DNA of 24,000 nt from Chromatiales bacterium (GTDB lineage Bacteria > Pseudomonadota > Gammaproteobacteria > JACCXJ01), in assembly GCA_043673815.1 (NCBI GenBank), contig JBIMKD010000272.1:1-24000 (forward strand). The letters are read 5' to 3'. The notes under the pieces are model-generated. The model searched no databases, was not told the origin of the DNA, and was given only the letters and a program-made list of their open reading frames with translations. Made by a program: the position numbers and the translations under genes. How positions within the stretch are numbered: position 1 is the stretch's first letter; each line of letters opens with the position of its first letter. Of the stretch, positions 6,536-22,892 are shown one piece after another.

Positions 6536-7600
6536 TCACGTCTCCCATCTCTCACGGCGCTTTCCCGGAACGGCTCTTACCCCGCCCGGCAGGTAGCGGC
6601 CGCGAGCGCCGCGCACGGCCATCTCAAAGCCGGCATCAAGGGCCGCTAGTAGGCTGCTCGGGTCGGCCTGGCCGGTCCCGGCTAGCATGAGCGCCGTGCC
6701 GTGATCGACCGATGTTCGAATGATCGGCAAGCCGAGCGTTACGTTCACGGCGCGGCCGAAGCCTTGGTGCTTCAGGACCGGGAGCCCTTGATCATGGTAC
6801 ATCGCAAGCACCGCGTCGGCGCGATTCACCGGTTCGGCGACGAAGGCGGTATCCGCGGGCAAGGGGCCCTCGACGCGGAGGCCCTCCGCACGCACGGTCT
6901 CGATCGCCGGAATAATATGATCGATCTCCTCCGTGCCGAGGTGTCCGCCCTCCCCCGCATGAGGGTTTAGGCCGCAAACGGCGATCCGGGGCTGGCTCAG
7001 GCCGAAACGGGCGCGGAGATCCCGAGCCAGGATCCGCAATACGCGTACGATGCGATCCTCGGTGATGAGATCGCTGACAGCGCGAAGGGGCACATGGGTG
7101 GTGGCGAGGGCGACGCGCAACTCGGGCGTACACAACATCATTACCGGAAAATGGCCGCCGGTCGCCGCGGCCAAATACTCCGTGTGACCGGTGAAGGGGA
7201 TCCCGGCATCGTTGAGGATCCCCTTGTGCACGGGCGCCGTCACCATGGCGTCGAAGGTCCCGTCCATGCACCCGCGGCAAGCCTGCGCGAGGGTCTCGAC
7301 CACAGAGGGAGCGTTGCGCTTATCCAATCGCCCGCTGACCGCCGGGCGGGCGAGCCGTACCGGTATGAGCTTGATCGCGCCGCGCCGTGCGACCGTGCGA
7401 TCTTCGGGCGAGAACGGCTCGATATGCAACGGGAGCTTGAGCTGCGCGGCGCGTGCAGTCAGCAATTTCGGATCGGCGATGACGGTGATCGCCCCCGGAT
7501 GCTCGCGTTGCGCGATGCGGACGATTAAGTCCGGTCCGATCCCAGCGGGCTCGCCGGCAGTGATGACGATCCGGGGACGCTGCGCAGCGGATTTTTTCAC
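6536..7600 (-). CDS. pdxA: 4-hydroxythreonine-4-phosphate dehydrogenase PdxA
   Basis: Motifs [31 protein letters not shown] and SVDHGTA, plus its position directly downstream of surA (6-nt gap). Confidence 0.92.
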
Positions 7601-7606
7601 AAGCCC

Positions 7607-8959
7607 TCACTCGCGGAAACGATACTCGACATACGCCTCGTCACGCAGGCGGCGTAACCAGGCTTGGCCGGTTTCTTCGATCTTCCGCCGCCGGATCGCA
7701 TCGCGGGCCTTACCTCGCAGCGCCTCGCGCGTATTATCATGGTCGCGGCGTTTCAAGACCTGAACGATGTGCCACCCGAGCTCGGTCTCGAAGGGATCGC
7801 TGATCCCGTTGGGGGTTAACAGGCCCATGACGTCGTCGAACTTAGGCGCCAGATCGCCCGGACTGACCCAACCCAAGTCGCCGCCCTTGGCCGCGGTGGC
7901 TTTGTCTTCCGAATGCGATCGGGCCAGATCATCGAAATCGTCCCCACCTTCGATACGTTTCTTAAGTTTATGGAGGCGTTCCCGCACATCATCGCTCGAC
8001 ATCAGCTCGCTAGGTTTGATCAGTATGTGCCGGGCGCGCGTTTGTTTGACGGTCAGCTCTTCCCCGGCGCTCCGGACCCCCAGCAGCTTAATGATATGGT
8101 AGCCGCTGGGGCTACCGATCACGTCGCTGATCTCGCCCTCGCGCAACGAGGTGACTACCTCCGAAAACACCGTAGGCACTTCCCCGGCCTTGCGCCAACC
8201 GGGATCGCCGCTATCGAAGGCCTGCGGGTCGCCGGAATTCTCCGCTGCTACGCGCAGGAAATCTTCGCCTGCGCGCACGCGCCGCAGGAGCTTCTCCGCC
8301 TGTTTGCGTGCCTTCTCCGCGTCCTCCGCGGACGCAGAGCGCGGTGTGGCAACCAAGATATGCGCGAGACGATATTCCATCTCGATCGTATCTTGTTGCA
8401 CTTGTGTGGCGAGATAGTTGTCTATTTCCCGGTCCGAGACATGCACCAGGTTCGACACCTCGCGCTGGCGCAAGCGGCTGATAATGATCTCATCTCGGAC
8501 ATCCTCCCGAAATTGCGCAAAGTCATAACCGCCGCGCTCCACCGCTTCGCGAAAGCGCGCCAGCGGCATGCCGTTTTCCGAAGCGATATTGCTCACGGCA
8601 CGGTTCAGGGTATCGTCGTCCACCTTTAAGCCGGTCTGCGCGGCAAGCTGCAACTGAATCTTCATGACGATGAGACGCTCCAGCACCTGACGGCGCAGGG
8701 CGGCGTCGGGCGGCGGATCGCCGCGTTGTTGTTGCGATTCCGCTTTCACGCGTTCGAACATACGGTTGATCTCGCTCGCCATGACAACGTCGTCATTGAC
8801 CACGGCGATGATCGCATCGAGCGGTTCGGCGGTGGCTGCCGCGCAAGTGCTGTAAGCCAGGAGAAGGGCGGCGAAGCAGCCCTGTCTTAAGCGTTGCAGG
8901 AGCGGGTTTAAGTTTTCACTCGTGGTCTTGTACATGCGTCTATAAATACTATTCAACAA
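7607..8959 (-). CDS. surA: Periplasmic chaperone / peptidyl-prolyl isomerase SurA
   Basis: N-terminal signal-like segment, SurA N-domain and two parvulin-type PPIase domains (ARHILIK...GGDLGW and AHILV...). It lies between lptD and pdxA. The start could alternatively be the ATG at 8935. Confidence 0.9.
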   Translation of the reverse strand: MLNSIYRRMYKTTSENLNPLLQRLRQGCFAALLLAYSTCAAATAEPLDAIIAVVNDDVVMASEINRMFERVKAESQQQRGDPPPDAALRRQVLERLIVMKIQLQLAAQTGLKVDDDTLNRAVSNIASENGMPLARFREAVERGGYDFAQFREDVRDEIIISRLRQREVSNLVHVSDREIDNYLATQVQQDTIEMEYRLAHILVATPRSASAEDAEKARKQAEKLLRRVRAGEDFLRVAAENSGDPQAFDSGDPGWRKAGEVPTVFSEVVTSLREGEISDVIGSPSGYHIIKLLGVRSAGEELTVKQTRARHILIKPSELMSSDDVRERLHKLKKRIEGGDDFDDLARSHSEDKATAAKGGDLGWVSPGDLAPKFDDVMGLLTPNGISDPFETELGWHIVQVLKRRDHDNTREALRGKARDAIRRRKIEETGQAWLRRLRDEAYVEYRFRE

Positions 8960-8974
8960 CCCCGGCGCGCGGCG

Positions 8975-11254
8975 CTAAAATTCGTTCTCGTACCCGGGAA
9001 TGCTCCGTTTTAGATAACTGGTGGTGCTGCGCCCAAAGCCGGCCAGCCCCTTGAGCTCGATCTGAACGAAAAACGCGTTGTCGAACTCCCCCGTGTCGCT
9101 GCTCACGAACCGCCGCGCCACCGTGCGGACACCCCAGCAGCAACTGTTGTACTCAAATCCTCCGGCGACCTCGACAGTGTCCTCGACATCCAAGGAATAG
9201 GTCCACTTACCGATGACGCTCCAATTCGGATCTAGCGGCCAACGAAACGCCAGATCGGTCTGCTCGATGAGAGTATCACCGAGACCGCGGATATTGCGGT
9301 TGATGCGATAATCGGCGTTCACGATGGTGTCGGGATCGGGACCATAACGCAACCCGATGAGGCCTTTTTCGACAGTCCCGTCGTTGGGGTCCAAGAACAG
9401 ATCCCCCCGCGCACTGAGACCATTGGGTAACCGGGTCGTGAGCTCCGCGAGGAAATTCGACACCGAAACGGTATCCGCCCCGTCGGTGGGCAAGTTGACA
9501 CGGCGATCCTCGAAATAAAAGATCTGGCCCACGCTCGCGCGCAGATGTTCCCAGCCCGTATAGCGATTTATGATCCTGGAAGTGACCGCGACCGCAGTCT
9601 GGTTTGCGTCGCCGAGACGGTCGGGGCCGCTGAACCGGTTTTCGCGAAATAGTTGCGCAAAGGAAATGTCGTATTGTCCGGTATCAAAAACAGGCAGATC
9701 ATCCTGATCCTGCTCGGGGACGTAAAGATAGAAGATCCGCGGTTCAAAGGTTTGCACGGCCGGCAGCGCCGCGAAATCAAGGTCGCGTTCAAATACGAGC
9801 CCGCTATCCAGGCTCACGATCGGCAGGGTCCGGCTAGGGCGATTATCCGCCCCAGCGGTGTTTTCGAGGTAATACTGAGTATGCTCGAGGCTCACCCGAG
9901 GCACGAGAAACCCCCCCGCGCCGTGCACCGGGTAGCTGATGACCGGTTTGAGGTCGATACGGCCGCCGATGACCCCCTCGTCGCGGTCAAAATAGGTGGC
10001 TTGCCCGAAAAATTCGAGGTTGATTTCCCGGTCGCGCGCGGGCAGGCGGGTGGAAAAAAAGATCTGCGGTAGCCGGTCGTAAGGCCGGTTCTCGACCGGA
10101 ATGGTGGAATCAACGGTTTGAAACCCCTGTAAACGGCCGAATATATTGAAGTAATCGCCGCGGTAGCTGATGTCGGCGCGCTGTGGAAGATAGCGCGTGC
10201 TCCTGACGGCAAGATTGCTTCCGAAGTCTTCGAAGTATTCCGAATCGGACACCCGGTTGTAGGTCAGAAAAGCGTGACCGCGCCGGCGCGCAAAATCTTG
10301 CTCATGGGTAAATGCAACCAGCGACCGGCTCTCGTCCTCGAAGCCGGCGTCCGAGGGCAGATACTCAAAATCAAGCTCTCCCCCGCCGCTTTGCAGGAGG
10401 TAACGGTATTGGCCCCCGAGCATCACGCCGCGGTTGGAAAGTATCCGAGGCTGGAAGGTTGCATCGTGTTGGGGCGCGATGTTCCAATAGTAGGGGGTGC
10501 TCAGGTCGAACCCGCTTTCCGAAGTGCTTCCCACCGTCGGCGGTAAGAAACCCGTTTTGCGCTTGTCGCTGATCGGGAAGGTGATATACGGCAGATAGAA
10601 TACCGGTGTCTCCCGCACCCGCAGCACCACGTGCTCAGCCTCGCCCCATTCCTCGTTATGATCCAGTTTCATGCGCTTAGCCGCGAGCTGCCAGTCCGGT
10701 GTCTTGCCGCCACACGTGGTGTAATCGACGTCCTTAAGCTGTGTGACATTCTCCCGCGTGTCGAGCTTGATGATGCGCGCGCCTCCGCGCCCGCGCCGTT
10801 GCAGCAATCGATACTCGCCATATTCAAGATGGGCGCGGTCGTTGGCGAGATCGAGGCGGCCGTATTTCCCCGACCAAAACAAAGCCGGATCCCACAGGAG
10901 CAGATGACCTTCGGCCTCAATGACGGCCTGACCGCGCTCGTAAGTGAGGAGATCCGCAACCACCGCTTGTTGCTCGCGGACCAAAGAGACACCACCCACG
11001 AATGTCGACACATTCTCCTCCAGGACCTCCACCCGGTCGGCCGTCACCTCAATCGACCCCAATTTATACGCCGCCGGATTTTGGGGAGGACGGTCCGGAA
11101 TCTTCGGATCGGCCTTGCAAAGGGCATAGCGCGGATCTTCAAGCTCCGGCGGGCCGGCCGCGGCTAGCGATGGAGCAGCGCACACTACGATCAAGACAGC
11201 CAGTAGCGCAGACCTTTTGAGCGCGGGTATTCGAGCGAGCGCGTGCAAACTCAT
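8975..11254 (-). CDS. lptD: LPS-assembly outer-membrane protein LptD (OstA/Imp)
   Basis: 759 aa with a signal peptide (LLAVLIVVCAAPSLAAA), an OstA-like N-domain and a long beta-barrel-type C-terminal region ending in an aromatic residue (...GYENEF). It shows the classical lptD-surA-pdxA synteny. Confidence 0.93.
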   Translation of the reverse strand: MSLHALARIPALKRSALLAVLIVVCAAPSLAAAGPPELEDPRYALCKADPKIPDRPPQNPAAYKLGSIEVTADRVEVLEENVSTFVGGVSLVREQQAVVADLLTYERGQAVIEAEGHLLLWDPALFWSGKYGRLDLANDRAHLEYGEYRLLQRRGRGGARIIKLDTRENVTQLKDVDYTTCGGKTPDWQLAAKRMKLDHNEEWGEAEHVVLRVRETPVFYLPYITFPISDKRKTGFLPPTVGSTSESGFDLSTPYYWNIAPQHDATFQPRILSNRGVMLGGQYRYLLQSGGGELDFEYLPSDAGFEDESRSLVAFTHEQDFARRRGHAFLTYNRVSDSEYFEDFGSNLAVRSTRYLPQRADISYRGDYFNIFGRLQGFQTVDSTIPVENRPYDRLPQIFFSTRLPARDREINLEFFGQATYFDRDEGVIGGRIDLKPVISYPVHGAGGFLVPRVSLEHTQYYLENTAGADNRPSRTLPIVSLDSGLVFERDLDFAALPAVQTFEPRIFYLYVPEQDQDDLPVFDTGQYDISFAQLFRENRFSGPDRLGDANQTAVAVTSRIINRYTGWEHLRASVGQIFYFEDRRVNLPTDGADTVSVSNFLAELTTRLPNGLSARGDLFLDPNDGTVEKGLIGLRYGPDPDTIVNADYRINRNIRGLGDTLIEQTDLAFRWPLDPNWSVIGKWTYSLDVEDTVEVAGGFEYNSCCWGVRTVARRFVSSDTGEFDNAFFVQIELKGLAGFGRSTTSYLKRSIPGYENEF

Positions 11255-16640: not shown

Positions 16641-17690
16641 TCACAACGCTTGGCGCTCATCCTCGGTAAAGAGCCGTAGGCGGTAAAGGCGCCAGGGGCC
16701 GGCATCCGCCCGCCGGCACATCCCGAAACGGAATGGAGGGAGCATCCCTGGCAGCGTGTAACGCAGATCGGTGAACCATACGCAGCCCTCTGCCCCGGCG
16801 CGGTCGACACGGTACAATGCGGGAAAACGCGCGAACTCGCGAAAACCTGCGAAGCCGTCCTGCGACCAGACCTCGCGCGCGAGCGGCGCCGTGCGGGGAT
16901 CGGCGCCGAAGCGCGGGTAGCGCGTCCAGCGCGCGGCGTCAGGCGCTACATAGGCGGCTGCCGTGGATGGAAATAGCCACGCGCCGGGGGACGCGAGCCC
17001 GTCCGGCCCGGCGAGCCGAAGATGGGTTTCGTAAACATCGAGCTCTCGTGAGACGATGATTTTCCAGTTGAACGGCGAGAACGGCTGCGCGATGGCGTGA
17101 ATCCCGGCCTCGCCGAGCGCCCGGCCGCGGACATAGGCGTGTCCGATGGCGAGCGCTTGTGTGTAGAGGAAATACTGCAAGCCGAGATAACTCCCGAGCA
17201 CGCCTAACGCCACGATCGCCGCGCGCCGGGCGTTCCATTTGAAAGAGACCACTAGCCCGATCAGGAGCATCCCGGAGAAAATGGGATCGATGACATAGGT
17301 GATCGGCAGGGTAACCCGGTGTTCCGAAAACGGCGCCCAGATCTGCGTGCCGTAGGCCGTAATCAAATCGCCCCCGATATGCGCGCTGATCCCGAGCACG
17401 CATAGCGGATAAAAAGCTTGCCATCCGTGCTCGCCGCGTAGCAGATACGGGCACGCCACAGCCACCAGACCCGCCCACAGCGGCATCAGCACCAGAGAAT
17501 GCGTCAGCCCTTGGTGTAGATTGAGATAGATCAGCGGAGCGGCCCAAAAAACCAGATAATCGATGTCGGGAAACGCCGCCGCGATAAAACCCGCCGACAC
17601 TCGTTGGCGCACGGGCACGCTGACAAATCGTGCCGCGCCGATGGCCTGGACCAGCAAAGCGCCGCTCAGGCCATGGGTGAAGGTATCCAA
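16641..17690 (-). CDS. YdjM/DUF457-type membrane-bound metal-dependent hydrolase with a C-terminal extension
   Basis: MDTFTHGLSGALL N-terminus, repeated His-containing TM segments (LHQGLTHSL, ISAHIGGDLITAYG) typical of the family, and multiple hydrophobic helices. It sits 9 nt downstream of the tetR gene. Confidence 0.75.
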   Translation of the reverse strand: MDTFTHGLSGALLVQAIGAARFVSVPVRQRVSAGFIAAAFPDIDYLVFWAAPLIYLNLHQGLTHSLVLMPLWAGLVAVACPYLLRGEHGWQAFYPLCVLGISAHIGGDLITAYGTQIWAPFSEHRVTLPITYVIDPIFSGMLLIGLVVSFKWNARRAAIVALGVLGSYLGLQYFLYTQALAIGHAYVRGRALGEAGIHAIAQPFSPFNWKIIVSRELDVYETHLRLAGPDGLASPGAWLFPSTAAAYVAPDAARWTRYPRFGADPRTAPLAREVWSQDGFAGFREFARFPALYRVDRAGAEGCVWFTDLRYTLPGMLPPFRFGMCRRADAGPWRLYRLRLFTEDERQAL

Positions 17691-17699
17691 CCAAGAGAT

Positions 17700-18323
17700 C
17701 TAAGCGGGCGGTTCGAGGCCACTACCGGGCACTGCCGCGCTTGGCCCCACCGTCGCGTGGGCGAAGCGTTCCGCGATGCCGAGCAGGCGCTCGAGCAACG
17801 CCTCCGTCGCGCCCGATCCCCGTGAATCGTCCCACATCCAGTAGCAGAACGTCGTGAGGTAAATGCCGGTCGTCGCCACCTCCTCAAATGCTCGTTGCAC
17901 ATAGGCGGCGTCGCGATGCGCCGCCTCGCGGAACCACTGCACGGTGCGGCTCACGCGCATGATCCCCGGAATCTGGATATGCAAGTGGCCCGGTTCGAGC
18001 TTGCCGGAGATCATCTGCCGGGTGACGCGCCGGTGCGGCGCTAAGGCGTTGAGCCAGGCCATGATGACGCGCTGCAAGCGTCGCCGGGTCGTCAGGCTAA
18101 GAAAGCCGGGCGCCGTGGCGGCGTGCAGCATCGCGGCGTCCGCACGGTCGAACCAGGCCTCGACGATATCCTCCTTTTCGCGGAAATAAACGCGCAGCTC
18201 ATCGAGCGTGATCCCCGCGGCCTCGGCCACCTCATGCAGGCGCACCACTTCCCACGAGCGCGGCTCGGCTAAAGCGAGGGCGGTATCAACGATCCTCTGT
18301 TTGAGATCCTGTTCGGGGTCCAA
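17700..18323 (-). CDS. TetR/AcrR-family transcriptional regulator
   Basis: N-terminal HTH RIVDTALALAEPRSWEVVRLHEVAEAAGITLDELRVYFREKEDIV, followed by a helical C-terminal ligand-domain-like region. Confidence 0.85.
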   Translation of the reverse strand: MDPEQDLKQRIVDTALALAEPRSWEVVRLHEVAEAAGITLDELRVYFREKEDIVEAWFDRADAAMLHAATAPGFLSLTTRRRLQRVIMAWLNALAPHRRVTRQMISGKLEPGHLHIQIPGIMRVSRTVQWFREAAHRDAAYVQRAFEEVATTGIYLTTFCYWMWDDSRGSGATEALLERLLGIAERFAHATVGPSAAVPGSGLEPPA

Positions 18324-18569
18324 CTGCGTGCGCTAAGGGTGACGATGGTACCTATGCTCAAGTATAGCGTTTAATTCTGAATACCCACCGTTTACGGCGG
18401 GCACTTTAGCATTGGGGTTTCCAAACGGGGAGTCGTGCAACTCTCCCAGCGCTTGCCGGCACTACCGCGAAGGCGGAAACTATGAAAAACCGGCGTAGTT
18501 CCAACGTCGTTCTGCGCTTCAAATGCTTAGTTCGGCCCTAACACGCGCCTGAGGGCGGAGGAGAAAAAA

Positions 18570-19334
18570 ATGGGCGAACGGAAAATCGTCACCATCCACT
18601 CCTATCGCGGCGGGACGGGGAAATCCAACATAACCGCCAACATCGCCGTTTGTGCTGAGGCAGCCGGCAAACGGGTGGCGGTGCTCGATACGGATCTGCA
18701 ATCGCCCGGGATCCACATCCTCTTCAACTTCGATCAAGAGCGGATCAAACTGACCTTATACGACTTCTTGCGGGGCAAGTGCACCATTGCCCAAGTCGCT
18801 TACGACGTCTCCGAGCATGGCAGTCCCGAAACCCCAGGGAAATGCTGGTTGGTACCGGCATCGTTGAACGCTCAGGCCATTACACAGCTCCTCGATGAAG
18901 GCTACGATATCAACCGGCTGAGCGACAACTTTGATGAATTGCTGGACGCCTTCGACCTCGATTACTTGTTCATCGACACCCACCCGGGGCTGAATAAGGA
19001 AACCATGCTCGCCGCCACGCTCTCGGACGTCCTGATCATCCTGATCCGGCCCGATCAGCAGGACTACTACGGCACGGCCGTATTGACCGAAATCGCGGCC
19101 AAGCTCGAGGTCCCAAAGGTTTACCTCATTGCCAATAAGGTGTACGCACGGCTCGATCCGGCCGAGCTACGGGCGCGCCTGCAAGAGGTCTTTGGCTGTG
19201 AGGTCCTGGGGTTGATCCCTTTGAGCGAAGACTTTGCTGAGCTCGCGAGCGAAGGCCTGTTCGTCCATCGCTATCCCGAGCACCCAATCAGCCTCAGCAT
19301 CCGGGACATTACCCAGCGTATACTGAGCACATGA
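18570..19334 (+). CDS. MinD/ParA/CbiA-superfamily P-loop ATPase with an atypical Walker A (SYRGGTGKS)
   Basis: KIVTIHSYRGGTGKSNITANIAVCAEAAGKRVAVLDTDLQSPG, followed by a Walker B-like YLFIDTHPG. SD GGAGGA upstream. Confidence 0.85.
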   Translation: MGERKIVTIHSYRGGTGKSNITANIAVCAEAAGKRVAVLDTDLQSPGIHILFNFDQERIKLTLYDFLRGKCTIAQVAYDVSEHGSPETPGKCWLVPASLNAQAITQLLDEGYDINRLSDNFDELLDAFDLDYLFIDTHPGLNKETMLAATLSDVLIILIRPDQQDYYGTAVLTEIAAKLEVPKVYLIANKVYARLDPAELRARLQEVFGCEVLGLIPLSEDFAELASEGLFVHRYPEHPISLSIRDITQRILST

Positions 19335-19383
19335 ATCCCGGCCGCCCGATGTCGATCGAGGCGTCATTCCCCGGTCGCTGATA

Positions 19384-20379
19384 ATGGCCACCGATCAAGA
19401 CCATGTCGCGCAGCTCATAGCGCAGCGCGAAGAGATCGAGGCGTCCTGCAATCCCTCACACTACCGTGTTCTAAAGCGCATTGCATCCAACCCGGACAAC
19501 CATCTGGCGATCGGCTTTGGTGCCGGAAGTGCGCCTGGCCTGGCCGGCAACCTCGCCCTTGCGGGTCTACTGAATGAGCTCGGGCTGCGACCGTTTATCA
19601 AGGAGATCTGGGGCGTCTCGGTGGGTGCCATCGTTGGTGGAGGCTGGAGTACCGGGCTATCCGTCGACCATATGCTGTCGCTCGCCGACGAGCTCGATCG
19701 CAAGGGCGCTGTGGATTTTGCTCGTTGGGAAGTCCTGGGGGCGGGACTGGCGCGTCTGCTTCTTTTCAAGCAATTACCCGACGGTCTGGTGCGCGGCCGC
19801 CGCTTTCGTCAGGCGATAGAACGCGGGCTTCCGGTCCAGCGCTTGGAAGACTGTGAAATACCCTTTCGTGCGATCGCCTGCACCGATGATGGGTATGCCC
19901 AAAAAGTCATCTTCCGCCAGGGGCCGTTAGTAAATGCCATCACGGCATCGATGTGCATCCCCGGCGTGCTGTTTCCGATCGCCGACTGGAACGGTCGAGA
20001 GCACGGTTATTTCGATGGCGCCGTGGTCGAAAAGACGCCCCTGCCTTCCATCATCGAAGAGCACCATCGGGAGGGGCGCAAGAGCCAACTGGTGGTGATC
20101 TGCACCCATTTCAGCGACTCGGGGCGCATCACGAAACCGGTGGGGTTTATTCAGCGCATGTTAAACGCCATGCACCACTTACAAGATGAGGTCTGGGAAT
20201 ACCAGGCGCTGAAGGCGCGCGAGGCGTCCAATTGCAAGTTTCTGGTCCTGAATCCGCACATGAAAGAGGGTACGGCCTTCGATTTTTCTGTGGTACGCTT
20301 CAACTATCTCTGGGCGAGAAAGATGTTCAAAGAACAACTCTCCAACGCCAAGCTCGCCACCCGTTTCGAGGCGAGGTGA
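19384..20379 (+). CDS. Patatin-like phospholipase family protein
   Basis: Glycine-rich loop GFGAGSAPG, nucleophile elbow GVSVG (Ser79) and catalytic YFDGAV (Asp211) occur in the order expected for the patatin Ser-Asp dyad. Confidence 0.85.
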   Translation: MATDQDHVAQLIAQREEIEASCNPSHYRVLKRIASNPDNHLAIGFGAGSAPGLAGNLALAGLLNELGLRPFIKEIWGVSVGAIVGGGWSTGLSVDHMLSLADELDRKGAVDFARWEVLGAGLARLLLFKQLPDGLVRGRRFRQAIERGLPVQRLEDCEIPFRAIACTDDGYAQKVIFRQGPLVNAITASMCIPGVLFPIADWNGREHGYFDGAVVEKTPLPSIIEEHHREGRKSQLVVICTHFSDSGRITKPVGFIQRMLNAMHHLQDEVWEYQALKAREASNCKFLVLNPHMKEGTAFDFSVVRFNYLWARKMFKEQLSNAKLATRFEAR

Positions 20380-20389
20380 AAGAGGTGAC

Positions 20390-22525
20390 ATGCCCGACCC
20401 AACTGAGCAGAAGGTAGCGACAGGGGTTGAGCAGGATGCTCAGGCGCAAGAGTCTGGCGCAGCTTCCTCTGCCACCCTTCGCCATGATTTGAGCCAACCG
20501 TTAAACCACATCCTCGGTTATAGCGAACTGTTATTGGAGGAGGCCAAGGGCGGGCAGCTAGAAACCTTCAGTGTTGATCTCCAGAAGATCCACACGGCCG
20601 CCACCACGCTCTTAGCCCTCATCGATTCGGTAGTTGTTTCGCCCAAACCCGGATCTGGCCCTCTGTCACCTGTCCCGCGTGTAGCCGGCGATCAATTCCA
20701 GCAACGAACTAAAGAACCCGACAGAGTGCCCGCGAGCGCTGGGCGTGAGATAGCCGCTCGCTCATTCGGGCACCTTATGGTCGTGGACGACGATGCGGTT
20801 AACCGCGACCTGCTGTCCAGGCGTTTGCGGCAGCAAGGCTATCAGGTCAGCATCGCAGAGCATGGCCGTCGGGCCTTGGAGTTGATCAAGGCCCAGCCGG
20901 TCGATCTCGTGTTACTCGATGTGCTCATGCCGGAGATGGATGGGTTCACCACCTGTGAGCGCCTCAAGGCAGATCCCGGAACCCAGAATATTCCAGTCAT
21001 CTTCATGACCGCACTGACCGACATCGTCGACAAGGTGAAGGGGTTTGAGCTCGGGGCCGTCGATTACATCACCAAGCCCTTCCAGCAGGAGGAGGTGCTC
21101 GCGCGCATTACCACCCATCTCGCACTCCAGCGGTTAAAGAGGAGCGTTCAGGAAAGCGAGGAACGGCTGTCGCGGATCATCGAGAGCGCAATGGACGCGA
21201 TCATTACGCTCGATGAAGCAGGTCGTATCGTCCTCTTCAATCGAGCGGCCGAGCGGGTGTTCCGCTGCCAGGCAACAGATACCATCGGCGGACCTGGTAA
21301 ACGGTTTTTCTCTGAAGGGTTGTACCGGGTGCTCGGCGAGTACGCGGGCGCGGACGAGACCCGCCCGAAGGTCCCCATCTGGGTGCCCGAGGGACACAGC
21401 GCGCTGCGCGCCGATGGCGAGGCCTTCCCCGTCGAGGCCACCATCTCCCATGCCGAGGCCAACGGCCAGCCGCTCTACACGCTTATCCTCCGCGATGTGC
21501 AGGAGCGCCACAAAGCGGAGGCCGAGCGCCGGCAGTTGCAGGGTCTTAATCGTTACCTCCAAGAGGAGCTGCGGGTGTCCCAGGCGGAGGAGGACCTCAT
21601 CGGCGCCTCCCAGGACTTGCGCGAGGTACTGGAGAGGGTCGAGCAAGTCGCCCCCACCGCCGCCACCGTGCTCATCCAGGGCGAGACCGGCACCGGCAAG
21701 GAGCTGATCGCGTGGACCATCCATACCCTCAGCCAGCGTAAAGACAAGGTCCTGGTCAAGCTCAACTGCGCCGCCATTCCCAACGGCCTGGTCGAAAGCG
21801 AGCTCTTCGGCCACGAGAAAGGGGCCTTTACCGGGGCGCTTTCCCGCAGGCTCGGCCGCTTCGAGCTTGCTGACCAGGGGACGCTATTTCTCGATGAAGT
21901 CGGCGAGCTGCCGCTCGCGGCGCAGGCCAAGCTCCTGCGCGTATTACAGGAAGGCGAGTTCGAGCGCGTCGGTGGAAGCGAGACCCGCAAAGTCGATGTC
22001 CGCGTCATTGCCGCCACCAACCGTGACCTCGTGACCCACGTGAAGGAGGGCAGCTTCCGCCCCGATCTCTTTTACCGCCTCAACGTCTTTCCCATCACGC
22101 TACCGCCCTTGCGCCAACGCAAGAAGGACCTGCCGCTGCTCATCAAGCACTTCGTGCGTACCTATGCCGAGAAGTACGGCAAGCGCATCGAGACCGTGCC
22201 CGCCCGGGCCATGACTGCCTTGCAGGCCCATGAGTGGCCGGGTAACGTTCGGGAGCTACAGCATGTGATCGAGCGGGCACTAATCCTCACCCGCGGGGCC
22301 GAGGTCGCCTTCGATGAGGAGTTTTTAGCCTCAGGGCCAGCGGGCCAGGGGAGTCCGCCTCCCATCGAGAGATTGGAGGAAGCCGAGCGGGCACATATCC
22401 TCAAGGCCCTGGAGCTAACCGGCTGGCGGGTGAGCGGCATGGGCGGCGCGGCCGAGCGTCTCGGCCTCAAACCCTCCACCCTGGAATTCCGCATGAAGAA
22501 ACTCGGCATCACCCGCCCCGCCTGA
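20390..22525 (+). CDS. Sigma-54-dependent Fis-family transcriptional activator with N-terminal H-box (HisKA-like) segment, REC, PAS, AAA+ and HTH domains
   Basis: LRHDLSQPLNHILGYSELLLEEAK (H-box, His32). REC with LVLLDVLMPEMDG (Asp177) and ITKP. PAS (RIIESAMDAIITLDEAGRIVLFNRAAERVF). AAA+ with GETGTGKE, ESELFGHEKGAFTGA (intact GAFTGA) and LFLDEVGE. C-terminal HTH AAERLGLKPSTLEFRMKKLGI. Confidence 0.92.
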   Translation: MPDPTEQKVATGVEQDAQAQESGAASSATLRHDLSQPLNHILGYSELLLEEAKGGQLETFSVDLQKIHTAATTLLALIDSVVVSPKPGSGPLSPVPRVAGDQFQQRTKEPDRVPASAGREIAARSFGHLMVVDDDAVNRDLLSRRLRQQGYQVSIAEHGRRALELIKAQPVDLVLLDVLMPEMDGFTTCERLKADPGTQNIPVIFMTALTDIVDKVKGFELGAVDYITKPFQQEEVLARITTHLALQRLKRSVQESEERLSRIIESAMDAIITLDEAGRIVLFNRAAERVFRCQATDTIGGPGKRFFSEGLYRVLGEYAGADETRPKVPIWVPEGHSALRADGEAFPVEATISHAEANGQPLYTLILRDVQERHKAEAERRQLQGLNRYLQEELRVSQAEEDLIGASQDLREVLERVEQVAPTAATVLIQGETGTGKELIAWTIHTLSQRKDKVLVKLNCAAIPNGLVESELFGHEKGAFTGALSRRLGRFELADQGTLFLDEVGELPLAAQAKLLRVLQEGEFERVGGSETRKVDVRVIAATNRDLVTHVKEGSFRPDLFYRLNVFPITLPPLRQRKKDLPLLIKHFVRTYAEKYGKRIETVPARAMTALQAHEWPGNVRELQHVIERALILTRGAEVAFDEEFLASGPAGQGSPPPIERLEEAERAHILKALELTGWRVSGMGGAAERLGLKPSTLEFRMKKLGITRPA

Positions 22526-22532
22526 TCGCTCA

Positions 22533-22561
22533 CAATATATTGGGACGCTCCCAAAATATTG
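22533..22561. promoter_or_regulatory. Imperfect palindrome CAATATATTGGGA-CGC-TCCCAAAATATTG, candidate enhancer (UAS) for a sigma-54 activator
   Basis: 13-nt arms with 1 mismatch and a 3-nt spacer, starting 8 nt after the activator stop and about 130 nt upstream of the -24 element at 22676. It is AT-rich and not followed by a U-tract, so it is a poor terminator. Confidence 0.4.
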
Positions 22562-22675
22562 CGACCAGAGGTCCCTGAAGCGGGTACCGTTTCTTCCTTC
22601 GCCTTCCTTATTAGATTGCAGCAATTCTTGTTAAGACAATAGGTTAAGCATAGCTTGCCAGGGCCTTCACGCGCC

Positions 22676-22690
22676 TGGTACAGGCCTTGC
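22676..22690 (+). promoter_or_regulatory. Sigma-54 (-24/-12) promoter candidate
   Basis: TGGTAC-AGGCC-TTGC matches TGGCAC-N5-TTGC at 9 of 10 defined positions with correct GG/GC spacing. It faces the small ORF and the nirA-family gene, and it lies downstream of a sigma-54 activator gene. Confidence 0.6.
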
Positions 22691-22769
22691 GCTAGAGAAT
22701 ACTGTGCGTGTCGAGACCAAGTAAAGCTCGATCACCGAATATCTGCAGAAACAATGGAGGAGCATCTCT

Positions 22770-22892
22770 ATGAACACCCAACGTTTCACGCCCAACATGC
22801 TCTCAAAGTTTAAAAATGGCTTGAATTCGTGGATTTCGCTTTGGCATTTCCTCCTACACCTAGAAAATCCGGATTTCTACGAAGGCCGATGA
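22770..22892 (+). CDS. Candidate 40-codon small ORF translationally coupled to the NirA-family gene
   Basis: GGAGGA lies 8 nt upstream of the ATG. It encodes [40 protein letters not shown], and its stop overlaps the next start (cgATGAct). It is below the 60-aa cutoff of the ORF track. There is no homology evidence. Confidence 0.35.

Follow-up and report, generated by a model that had tools for sequence, protein, structure and literature searches.

We analysed a window of 24,000 nucleotides (nt) from a Chromatiales bacterium (GenBank assembly GCA_043673815.1, contig JBIMKD010000272.1, positions 1 to 24,000 of the forward strand). Three consecutive open reading frames (ORFs) on its plus strand encode a MinD/ParA-type ATPase, a patatin-like lipase and a sigma-54 activator. 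We found that the ATPase and the patatin are a conserved two-gene unit. It is very probable that this pair is a functional unit and that the activator is separate from it. The best explanation overall, to which we give an even chance, is an ATPase-gated cytosolic lipase module for lipid remodelling. An earlier reading, made from the letters of the window alone (the sequence-only reading), had described all three genes as one cluster. Its ORFs, coordinates and gaps were exact on re-check: 246 nt between a divergent TetR-like gene and the ATPase, 49 nt between the ATPase and the patatin, and 10 nt between the patatin and the activator. The three genes are:

18570-19334, plus strand: ORF1, MinD/ParA-fold ATPase of the patatin-linked clade of the 'SYRGGTGKS' family, 254 amino acids (aa)
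19384-20379, plus strand: ORF2, predicted cytosolic patatin-like acyl hydrolase of a rare subfamily, 331 aa
20390-22525, plus strand: ORF3, sigma-54 enhancer-binding protein by its Pfam domains, 711 aa

The ATPase and patatin genes form a conserved pair

We aligned 27 patatin homologues (40-93% identity) and used the alignment to fetch 46 loci, one genome per species. True members of the patatin subfamily are present in 38 of the 46 loci, 36 with enough upstream sequence to be evaluated, and the window proteins were mapped onto the loci by tblastn. Our own greedy ORF caller erred on some high-GC genes; the conclusions are based on tblastn and hidden Markov model (HMM) mapping and on three independently annotated contigs.

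A same-strand ATPase homologue (44-97% identity) lies upstream of the patatin in 32 of the 36 evaluable loci. The hosts that carry the pair belong to the Gammaproteobacteria (among them the cultured Nitrococcus mobilis Nb-231 and Ectothiorhodospiraceae), Planctomycetota, Sumerlaeota/BRC1, Auribacterota and Binatia. Over the 32 loci the pairwise distances of the ATPase and of the patatin are correlated (r = 0.90). Roughly half of the loci have the two genes side by side, and in ten of these the ATPase stop overlaps the patatin start, an arrangement that points to frequent translational coupling. In the other loci, a block of enzyme genes of ~4.6 kb sits between them. Three extra contigs, with independent gene calls and precomputed Pfam annotation, have the same architectures. 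The locus of N. mobilis Nb-231 (L025) illustrates the adjacent form:

7147-7926: ATPase
7983-8966: patatin
8963-9487, minus strand: FHA protein

The ATPase phylogeny follows the patatin gene. In a tree of 117 ATPase sequences, a single clade holds all patatin-linked ATPases (33/33), all enzyme-linked ones (4/4) and 2 from short contigs, and none of the 44 evaluable ATPases from other contexts falls inside it. The sequence-only reading had proposed that the ATPase positions or controls the lipase and that the activator couples this to transcription. The first part fits the co-inheritance of the pair across phyla; for the second we found no conserved linkage.

Full-text literature searches returned no relevant account of a pairing between a MinD-like ATPase and a patatin, of the RGGTGKS motif or of GH3/patatin/enolase clusters. 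The families of the components are familiar ones; the conserved module, the family of Arg-variant ATPases and the links to kinase/FHA genes and to GH3 lipid enzymes appear to be undescribed.

ORF1 belongs to a MinD-like family with an arginine in the Walker A motif

ORF1 matches the Pfam families AAA_31, ParA and CbiA. Its AlphaFold2 model is confident (predicted local distance difference test, pLDDT, 88.2), and the top fold match is archaeal MinD-1 (1hyq, template-modelling (TM) scores 0.82/0.89), followed by MinD, FlhG, FleN and Soj, which confirms the MinD/ParA SIMIBI fold. ORF1 scores far below the MinD equivalog cutoffs (TIGR01968, 48.2 versus 212.9 bits; TIGR01969, 84.8 versus 201.75 bits). 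The Arg-for-Lys Walker A noticed in the sequence-only reading is real: in the segment HSYRGGTGKSN, R13 occupies the alignment column that holds the signature Lys in MinD and FleN. Arg13 replaces the Lys of KGGxGK[ST] in all 117 family members, and HS[YF]RGGTGKSN is invariant across the patatin-linked homologues (32/32). Because Arg13, along with about 40 further positions, is invariant in both the patatin-linked clade and its sister clade, the replacement is a family trait and not a local mutation. The P-loop residues G17-K18-S19, the Walker A' residues D40/D42 and the Walker B residue D136 are invariant in the family as well.

ORF1 thus shares with MinD, archaeal MinD-1, FlhG and FleN the fold (TM 0.75-0.89), the GK[ST] motif, the Walker A' and B aspartates and a size of ~250 aa. 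It differs from them in the Arg, in the sub-equivalog scores and in its conserved neighbour, which is a lipase rather than MinC/E, FlhF or FleQ. It also differs at the C-terminus: in the homologue alignment the C-termini are variable, with no conserved amphipathic membrane-targeting helix.

The family extends far beyond the patatin loci. A motif search of metagenome contigs (SYRGGTGKS plus DTHPGLN) found at least 594 ATPase relatives, and most of the best 80 among them have no adjoining patatin. Their neighbours are Cache/HAMP membrane proteins, winged-helix proteins of ~106 aa, cNMP-binding proteins, DUF7005 proteins or cyclase-AAA_16-TPR proteins.

Proteins with this fold could act in another way: like ParA, the ATPase would organise the lipase, or a lipid-metabolic assembly, in space on the nucleoid or membrane and would switch no activity. 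The MinD/ParA/Soj fold agrees with such positioning, and so does the sister clade, where the ATPase is paired with small winged-helix proteins that have a conserved C-terminal tail, a pairing reminiscent of ParA and its adaptors. However, we found the winged-helix partner domain in no patatin-type locus, the membrane-targeting helix is not conserved, and nothing identifies a cargo. We regard positioning alone as rather unlikely.

ORF2 is a patatin with an altered glycine-rich loop

ORF2 matches the Pfam Patatin family (PF01734) with 61.9 bits against a cutoff of 27.7. Both halves of the Ser-Asp dyad named in the sequence-only reading are present, in GVSVG (G77-V-S79-V-G81) and in DGA (D211-G212), and S79, D211 and G48 are invariant in the 27 homologues. 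The oxyanion loop is degenerate, as had also been noted: it reads GFGAGSAPG in ORF2 and contains no Arg or Lys. The Gly-rich loop is GGGSxPG family-wide and GAGSAPG in the window, neither of which is the canonical GGGx[RK]G. A near-invariant Pro51 replaces the basic residue; the PlpD counterpart is ...GGAARG.... In cPLA2, the basic residue of this loop contributes to binding of the phosphate head group, and ORF2, which has lost it, may act on a substrate other than a phospholipid.

The AlphaFold2 model of ORF2 (pLDDT 87.1) has as its best Foldseek matches PlpD, CapV, CapE, plant patatin and iPLA2-beta, with E values down to 4e-16; VipD and ExoU are also matched, at lower rank. Beyond the patatin fold, the protein has an N-terminal helical extension that is specific to the family, and a C-terminal region. 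It shares with PlpD/RssA-type patatins the fold, the GxSxG Ser and the DG[AG] Asp, and PlpD is its top match in both sequence and fold. In contrast to PlpD, ORF2 is predicted to be a cytosolic, single-domain protein with no Omp85/POTRA part; it also differs from these patatins by the missing Arg/Lys in the Gly-rich loop, the extra terminal regions and the tie of its gene to an ATPase. The subfamily is rare: only 31 clusters (50% identity) were found at E<=1e-30 among 1.84 billion representatives, compared with 4,066 generic patatins at E<=1e-10 in the same search. With the dyad and the Walker A, A' and B residues invariant and both models confident, the patatin and the ATPase are both predicted to be catalytically competent.

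The likeness to the defence lipases CapV and CapE, which are close fold matches, raises a role in conflict or abortive infection. Here the patatin would be a membrane-destroying effector that is kept in check by the NTPase as a sensor and by Ser/Thr-kinase/FHA signalling. Some sister-clade ATPases adjoin cyclase-AAA_16-TPR proteins, the flanks of the pair vary among close relatives, and a tRNA-Gly gene precedes the pair in one of them (L003), all of which would suit a defence locus. But PADLOC returned no match for the lipase and only weak generic ones for the ATPase, and the gene annotation of the window has no CD-NTase (cyclase) gene beside the lipase. No subfamily member occurs on viral contigs, where the only matches are generic patatins (23-29% identity), or on plasmids, which gave no match. 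The window context is housekeeping, the two proteins diverge congruently, and the pair regularly occurs together with an enzyme block that looks biosynthetic. The defence role left open by the sequence-only reading therefore found no support, and we consider it very unlikely.

The sigma-54 activator belongs to a separate cassette

ORF3 is the multi-domain sigma-54 activator that it was first taken for. Pfam resolves HisKA-like, REC, PAS, AAA+ (with GAFTGA), lid and HTH_8 regions, with 242 bits for PF00158 and 31.3 bits for HTH_8. Just two of the 46 patatin-type loci, L001 (the window contig) and L003, have the activator after the pair. It is missing in L002, whose patatin is 93% identical, and in all more distant relatives. 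The neighbourhood comparison thus broke up the trio, since the three genes are unlinked in related genomes, the outcome that the sequence-only reading had itself named as a refutation; the ATPase-patatin pair, kept across at least five phyla, is what stood. Three elements lie downstream of the activator:

~22537-22560: palindrome and candidate activator-binding site, just past the activator stop and ~136 nt upstream of the -24/-12 element; kept in L003
22676-22690, plus strand: sigma-54-type -24/-12 promoter, TGGTACAGGCCTTGC, the sole match in the window; site kept in L003
22770-22892, plus strand: 40-aa ORF past the -24/-12 promoter; L003 has an ORF with 82% identity to it immediately after its activator

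The 245-nt region past ORF3 is 90% identical to its counterpart in L003; together with the 40-aa ORF it covers 22526-22892 in the window and 4913-5270 in L003. This conserved stretch holds the palindrome, at which a scan reported a minus-strand hairpin, the -24/-12 element (TGGCGT-N5-TTTGC in L003) and the ribosome-binding site of the 40-aa ORF. Further downstream the two genomes differ: the window continues with a NirA/sulfite-reductase-like gene (from 22889, running off the window end) and a CysJ-like gene, and L003 with an ETR1_N hybrid kinase. The promoter at 22676 had been proposed in the sequence-only reading, and its position and its conservation in L003 back it. The match count does not, being weak evidence when one or more matches also turn up in 19 of 100 shuffles. 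Upstream of the ATPase we found no sigma-54 element, either by reading the 246-nt region or in the consensus scan of the window. We conclude that the activator, the palindrome, the -24/-12 element and the 40-aa ORF, with the NirA/CysJ-like genes next in the window, are a separate, lineage-specific cassette, in which the activator would serve its own downstream promoter. It would have been placed after the pair in this lineage and is perhaps read through from it.

Could the three genes nevertheless be a lineage-specific operon? The pair would then have been rewired to two-component/sigma-54 signalling in place of the kinase and FHA genes found elsewhere, and all three products would work in one pathway, for instance by co-transcription and a shared phosphorelay. 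The 10-nt patatin-activator gap, which has no terminator and recurs as the same junction in L003, is what an operon would look like. Directly after the pair, L002 has genes for a hybrid kinase, a REC protein and a HisKA-REC-HAMP protein, and the window carries no FHA or kinase genes. On the other side, L002 has no activator despite a patatin with 93% identity, the activator has a conserved downstream target of its own, no sigma-54 promoter precedes the ATPase, and the upstream flanks also vary among close relatives. We hold a three-gene operon to be unlikely, if worth keeping in view.

The sequence-only reading had also offered a partner switch in which the ATPase binds and restrains the AAA+ domain of the adjacent activator, as FleN does with FleQ. 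FleN structures are indeed among the sequence and fold matches (E about 6e-11, TM about 0.75), and the ATPase and activator genes are close together in the window. Yet that adjacency is confined to the same two loci, and the ATPase clade tracks the patatin gene instead. MinD matches beat FleN matches, ORF1 is no closer to FleN than to MinD, and there is no flagellar context: the contig gene annotation shows no flagellar genes near the pair. The activator has its own conserved palindrome, -24/-12 element and small ORF downstream, and no sigma-54 promoter was found upstream of the ATPase. The neighbourhood data largely refute a FleN-like anti-activator already, and we regard it as highly improbable.

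The two-component proteins of this lineage have features of their own. Residues 28-81 of ORF3, ahead of the REC domain, are a HisKA-like DHp region with an intact H-box (LRHDLSQPL) and no HATPase_c domain. Paralogous HisKA-REC-HAMP proteins in neighbouring phosphorelay clusters (L002 12133-13203; L003 8021-9082) are ~52% identical there. The HisKA-like domain may be a phosphotransfer or phosphatase module. The hybrid histidine kinases directly downstream in the close relatives (L002 9002-11743; L003 5514-7628) differ in their sensors, one MHYT and the other ETR1_N (ethylene-receptor-like), and each is followed by a stand-alone REC protein.

A kinase, an FHA protein and a block of enzymes recur with the pair

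In the wider set of loci the pair has recurrent partners. A small FHA protein (~170 aa) is usually encoded 0-100 nt past the patatin, in most cases convergently. Directly before the ATPase there is often (at least 8 loci) a gene for a Ser/Thr kinase of the Hanks type whose N-terminus carries a dCache sensor. With HMMs built from these neighbours we detected the FHA protein in 30/46 and the kinase in 15/46 patatin-type loci; both were at 0/75 in the sister-clade ATPase loci. The FHA protein weakly matches the TagH and OdhI models. The arrangement recalls the control of type VI secretion by PpkA-Fha1 threonine phosphorylation, where genes for a Hanks-type kinase and an FHA protein likewise lie beside the presumed target machinery. 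The output is different here and type VI secretion genes are missing, so the likeness is one of analogy only.

The enzyme block begins with an α/β-hydrolase gene (Hydrolase_4), continues with genes for an MR/MLE enzyme of the enolase superfamily and a GH3 acyl-acid amido synthetase, and closes with another α/β-hydrolase gene, sometimes with DUF445 next. The NCBIfam matches of the MR/MLE enzyme, all sub-cutoff, include N-acetyl-D-Glu racemase and Ala-Glu epimerase, and it might racemise an amino acid or an N-acyl derivative. The sole NCBIfam match of the GH3 enzyme is OlsH, the lyso-ornithine-lipid synthetase, at 92.6 bits against a cutoff of 620.

OlsH joins free fatty acids to ornithine in an ATP-dependent reaction, and OlsI, an α/β-hydrolase, adds the second acyl chain (PMC12493201). 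The inactivity of OlsH in E. coli cells was ascribed by the authors to scarce free fatty acid (PMC12493201). The extended relatives of the window locus resemble this planctomycete ornithine-lipid pathway in carrying GH3 and α/β-hydrolase genes, and the patatin could supply the free fatty acids that OlsH needs. Their cluster differs from it in having no OlsG and in adding the enolase-superfamily enzyme, and none of these genes is in the window. A patatin beside GH3 and α/β-hydrolases therefore fits a scheme of membrane-lipid deacylation in which the fatty acid would be used again to make an N-acyl-amino-acid lipid. As the genes are absent from the window, the scheme would apply to the relatives.

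A possible ATPase-gated lipase module

We propose that the window pair, ORF1 with ORF2, represents the simplest version of a module that consists of an Arg-variant MinD-type ATPase and a dedicated cytosolic patatin-like acyl hydrolase. The ATPase would be an ATP-dependent dimerisation switch whose dimer face binds partners, as in MinD-family proteins. Its invariant RPDQQDY segment aligns with the MinC/MinE-binding helix of MinD. By licensing or localising the lipase, the ATPase would restrict the deacylation of membrane lipid to times when a signal is present, and across most lineages this signal would arrive through the dCache Ser/Thr kinase and the small FHA protein. In many genomes the freed fatty acid would feed the co-encoded GH3 acyl-amido synthetase, α/β-hydrolases and enolase-superfamily enzyme, a set that resembles the OlsH/OlsI amino-lipid pathway and would make the module one for lipid remodelling rather than killing. 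The window holds the two-gene core only. Physical control of the lipase by the ATPase, input from the kinase and FHA protein, and the remodelling role are inferred steps. We put forward the switch mechanism tentatively, as somewhat less than an even bet, and we are about as reserved over lipid remodelling as the role.

Precedents exist for lipases of this fold. VipD needs bound Rab5 and ExoU needs bound ubiquitin for activity, and the activating partner of VipD is a P-loop NTPase. By analogy with these two, patatins may commonly be inactive until a protein cofactor binds. What ORF2 has in common with VipD-Rab5, ExoU-ubiquitin and the cyclic-nucleotide-dependent CapV/CapE is the patatin fold; the shared principle would be a partner-gated lipase. 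The difference is that those proteins serve as secreted toxins or in defence, and host proteins or nucleotides activate them, whereas here the presumed activator would be a co-encoded MinD-type ATPase.

Several observations weigh against the module as proposed. The patatin occurs with no ATPase in 4/36 loci (L013, L017, L029, L037), and the ATPase tree that groups the patatin-linked sequences is a neighbour-joining tree with no bootstrap support. Only L39 and A223 separate the patatin-linked clade from its sister clade, which gives no sign of a specialised interface. Two-component genes follow the pair co-directionally in each of the three close relatives, and a lineage-specific functional tie of the pair to two-component signalling is conceivable. 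The lineage of the window has no FHA, kinase, GH3 or α/β-hydrolase genes nearby (an HMM check of the window found neither FHA nor kinase), and the remodelling role is therefore extrapolated from relatives. Finally, judged by a score far under the cutoff, the GH3 enzyme of the block is not OlsH.

A broader idea is speculative and, in our view, improbable as a whole. The SYRGGTGKS ATPases would be an unrecognised class of signalling switch that relays input from membrane sensors (dCache Ser/Thr kinases, Cache/HAMP proteins) to outputs that can be exchanged for one another. One clade would have co-evolved with a patatin lipase and an FHA protein into an ATP- and phosphothreonine-gated device for deacylating membrane lipid when needed, and in many phyla it would feed a new GH3-dependent N-acyl-amino-acid lipid.

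To our knowledge, the control of bacterial cytoplasmic patatin-like lipases, which are dangerous enzymes, is mostly unknown. If the proposal is true, a co-inherited MinD-type ATPase, often with a Ser/Thr kinase and an FHA reader, is a new control logic for such lipases. It would also be a new job for MinD/ParA ATPases, which are otherwise known for positioning and division. Because genes for GH3, α/β-hydrolases and an enolase-superfamily enzyme are frequently inserted, the module is connected with a recently found GH3 amino-lipid route and suggests a source of free fatty acid for such pathways. The invariant Arg-for-Lys Walker A is a clean target for mutagenesis, and the presence of the module in the cultured N. 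mobilis Nb-231 makes it approachable by experiment.

Neighbouring genes and further observations

Upstream of the pair the window contains the following features:

17700-18323, minus strand: divergent TetR-fold, COQ9-like gene, with TetR_N and COQ9-family matches that are both sub-cutoff
18324-18569: divergent intergenic region of 246 nt, presumed ATPase-patatin promoter region, as read from the sequence

The divergent gene had been called tetR. The gene is there, and its TetR identity is weak (TetR_N, 21.2 bits against a cutoff of 24). The top NCBIfam match of its product is the COQ9 family (E 5e-6, sub-cutoff), which fits about as well as TetR_N. The protein is possibly a lipid-sensing regulator. 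Its gene occurs in L001 and L002 only and is not conserved in L003; it is lineage-specific and lies outside the conserved module. It is apparently in an operon (9-nt gap) with a gene for a YdjM-family membrane hydrolase (16641-17690, minus strand), divergent from the pair. A search for a TetR operator gave one weak 11-nt inverted repeat only, and sigma-70 and terminator consensus scans gave nothing beyond the shuffled expectation. A Shine-Dalgarno sequence had been assigned to each of the three ORFs; we recovered it for ORF1 (GGAGGAG) and ORF3 (AGAGGTG) but saw none that is obvious upstream of ORF2. By gene calls and Pfam, the surroundings in the window are housekeeping genes, including lptD, a Mur-ligase-family gene and a globin gene.

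The 246-nt region is kept in L002; L003 has a tRNA-Gly context instead. There, tRNA-Gly(CCC) (752-822) lies 125 nt upstream of the ATPase and replaces the TetR-like, YdjM and globin genes that the window shares with L002. The pair therefore has different surroundings on either side among genomes whose patatins are 90-93% identical.

In the sister clade (L048-L127), the gene after the ATPase typically encodes a winged-helix protein of ~106 aa whose C-terminal 'RRxx-PxNIWxxL' tail is conserved, and the same domain is found twice within proteins of ~970 aa that have no Pfam match. From sequence, this looks like an undescribed ParA-adaptor-like pairing in signalling neighbourhoods. The 419-aa HAMP protein that the window contig encodes beyond the window end is unrelated to the HAMP/Cache proteins beside these ATPases. 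Examples from the sister clade are:

L054, 2514-2834
L066, 2371-5268
L069, 858-1184

The extended-cluster planctomycete loci (L010-L015; L128 974-2518) share a gene directly upstream of the ATPase; its conserved product, ~510-550 aa long, matches nothing in Pfam or NCBIfam convincingly. In Nitrococcus (L025 657-6039, minus strand) and the related Ectothiorhodospiraceae loci L018, L029 and L035, a divergent block precedes the module. It encodes a TolC-like OEP protein, an 803-aa protein with two FHA domains and an HlyD-family protein, and is a further link to FHA.

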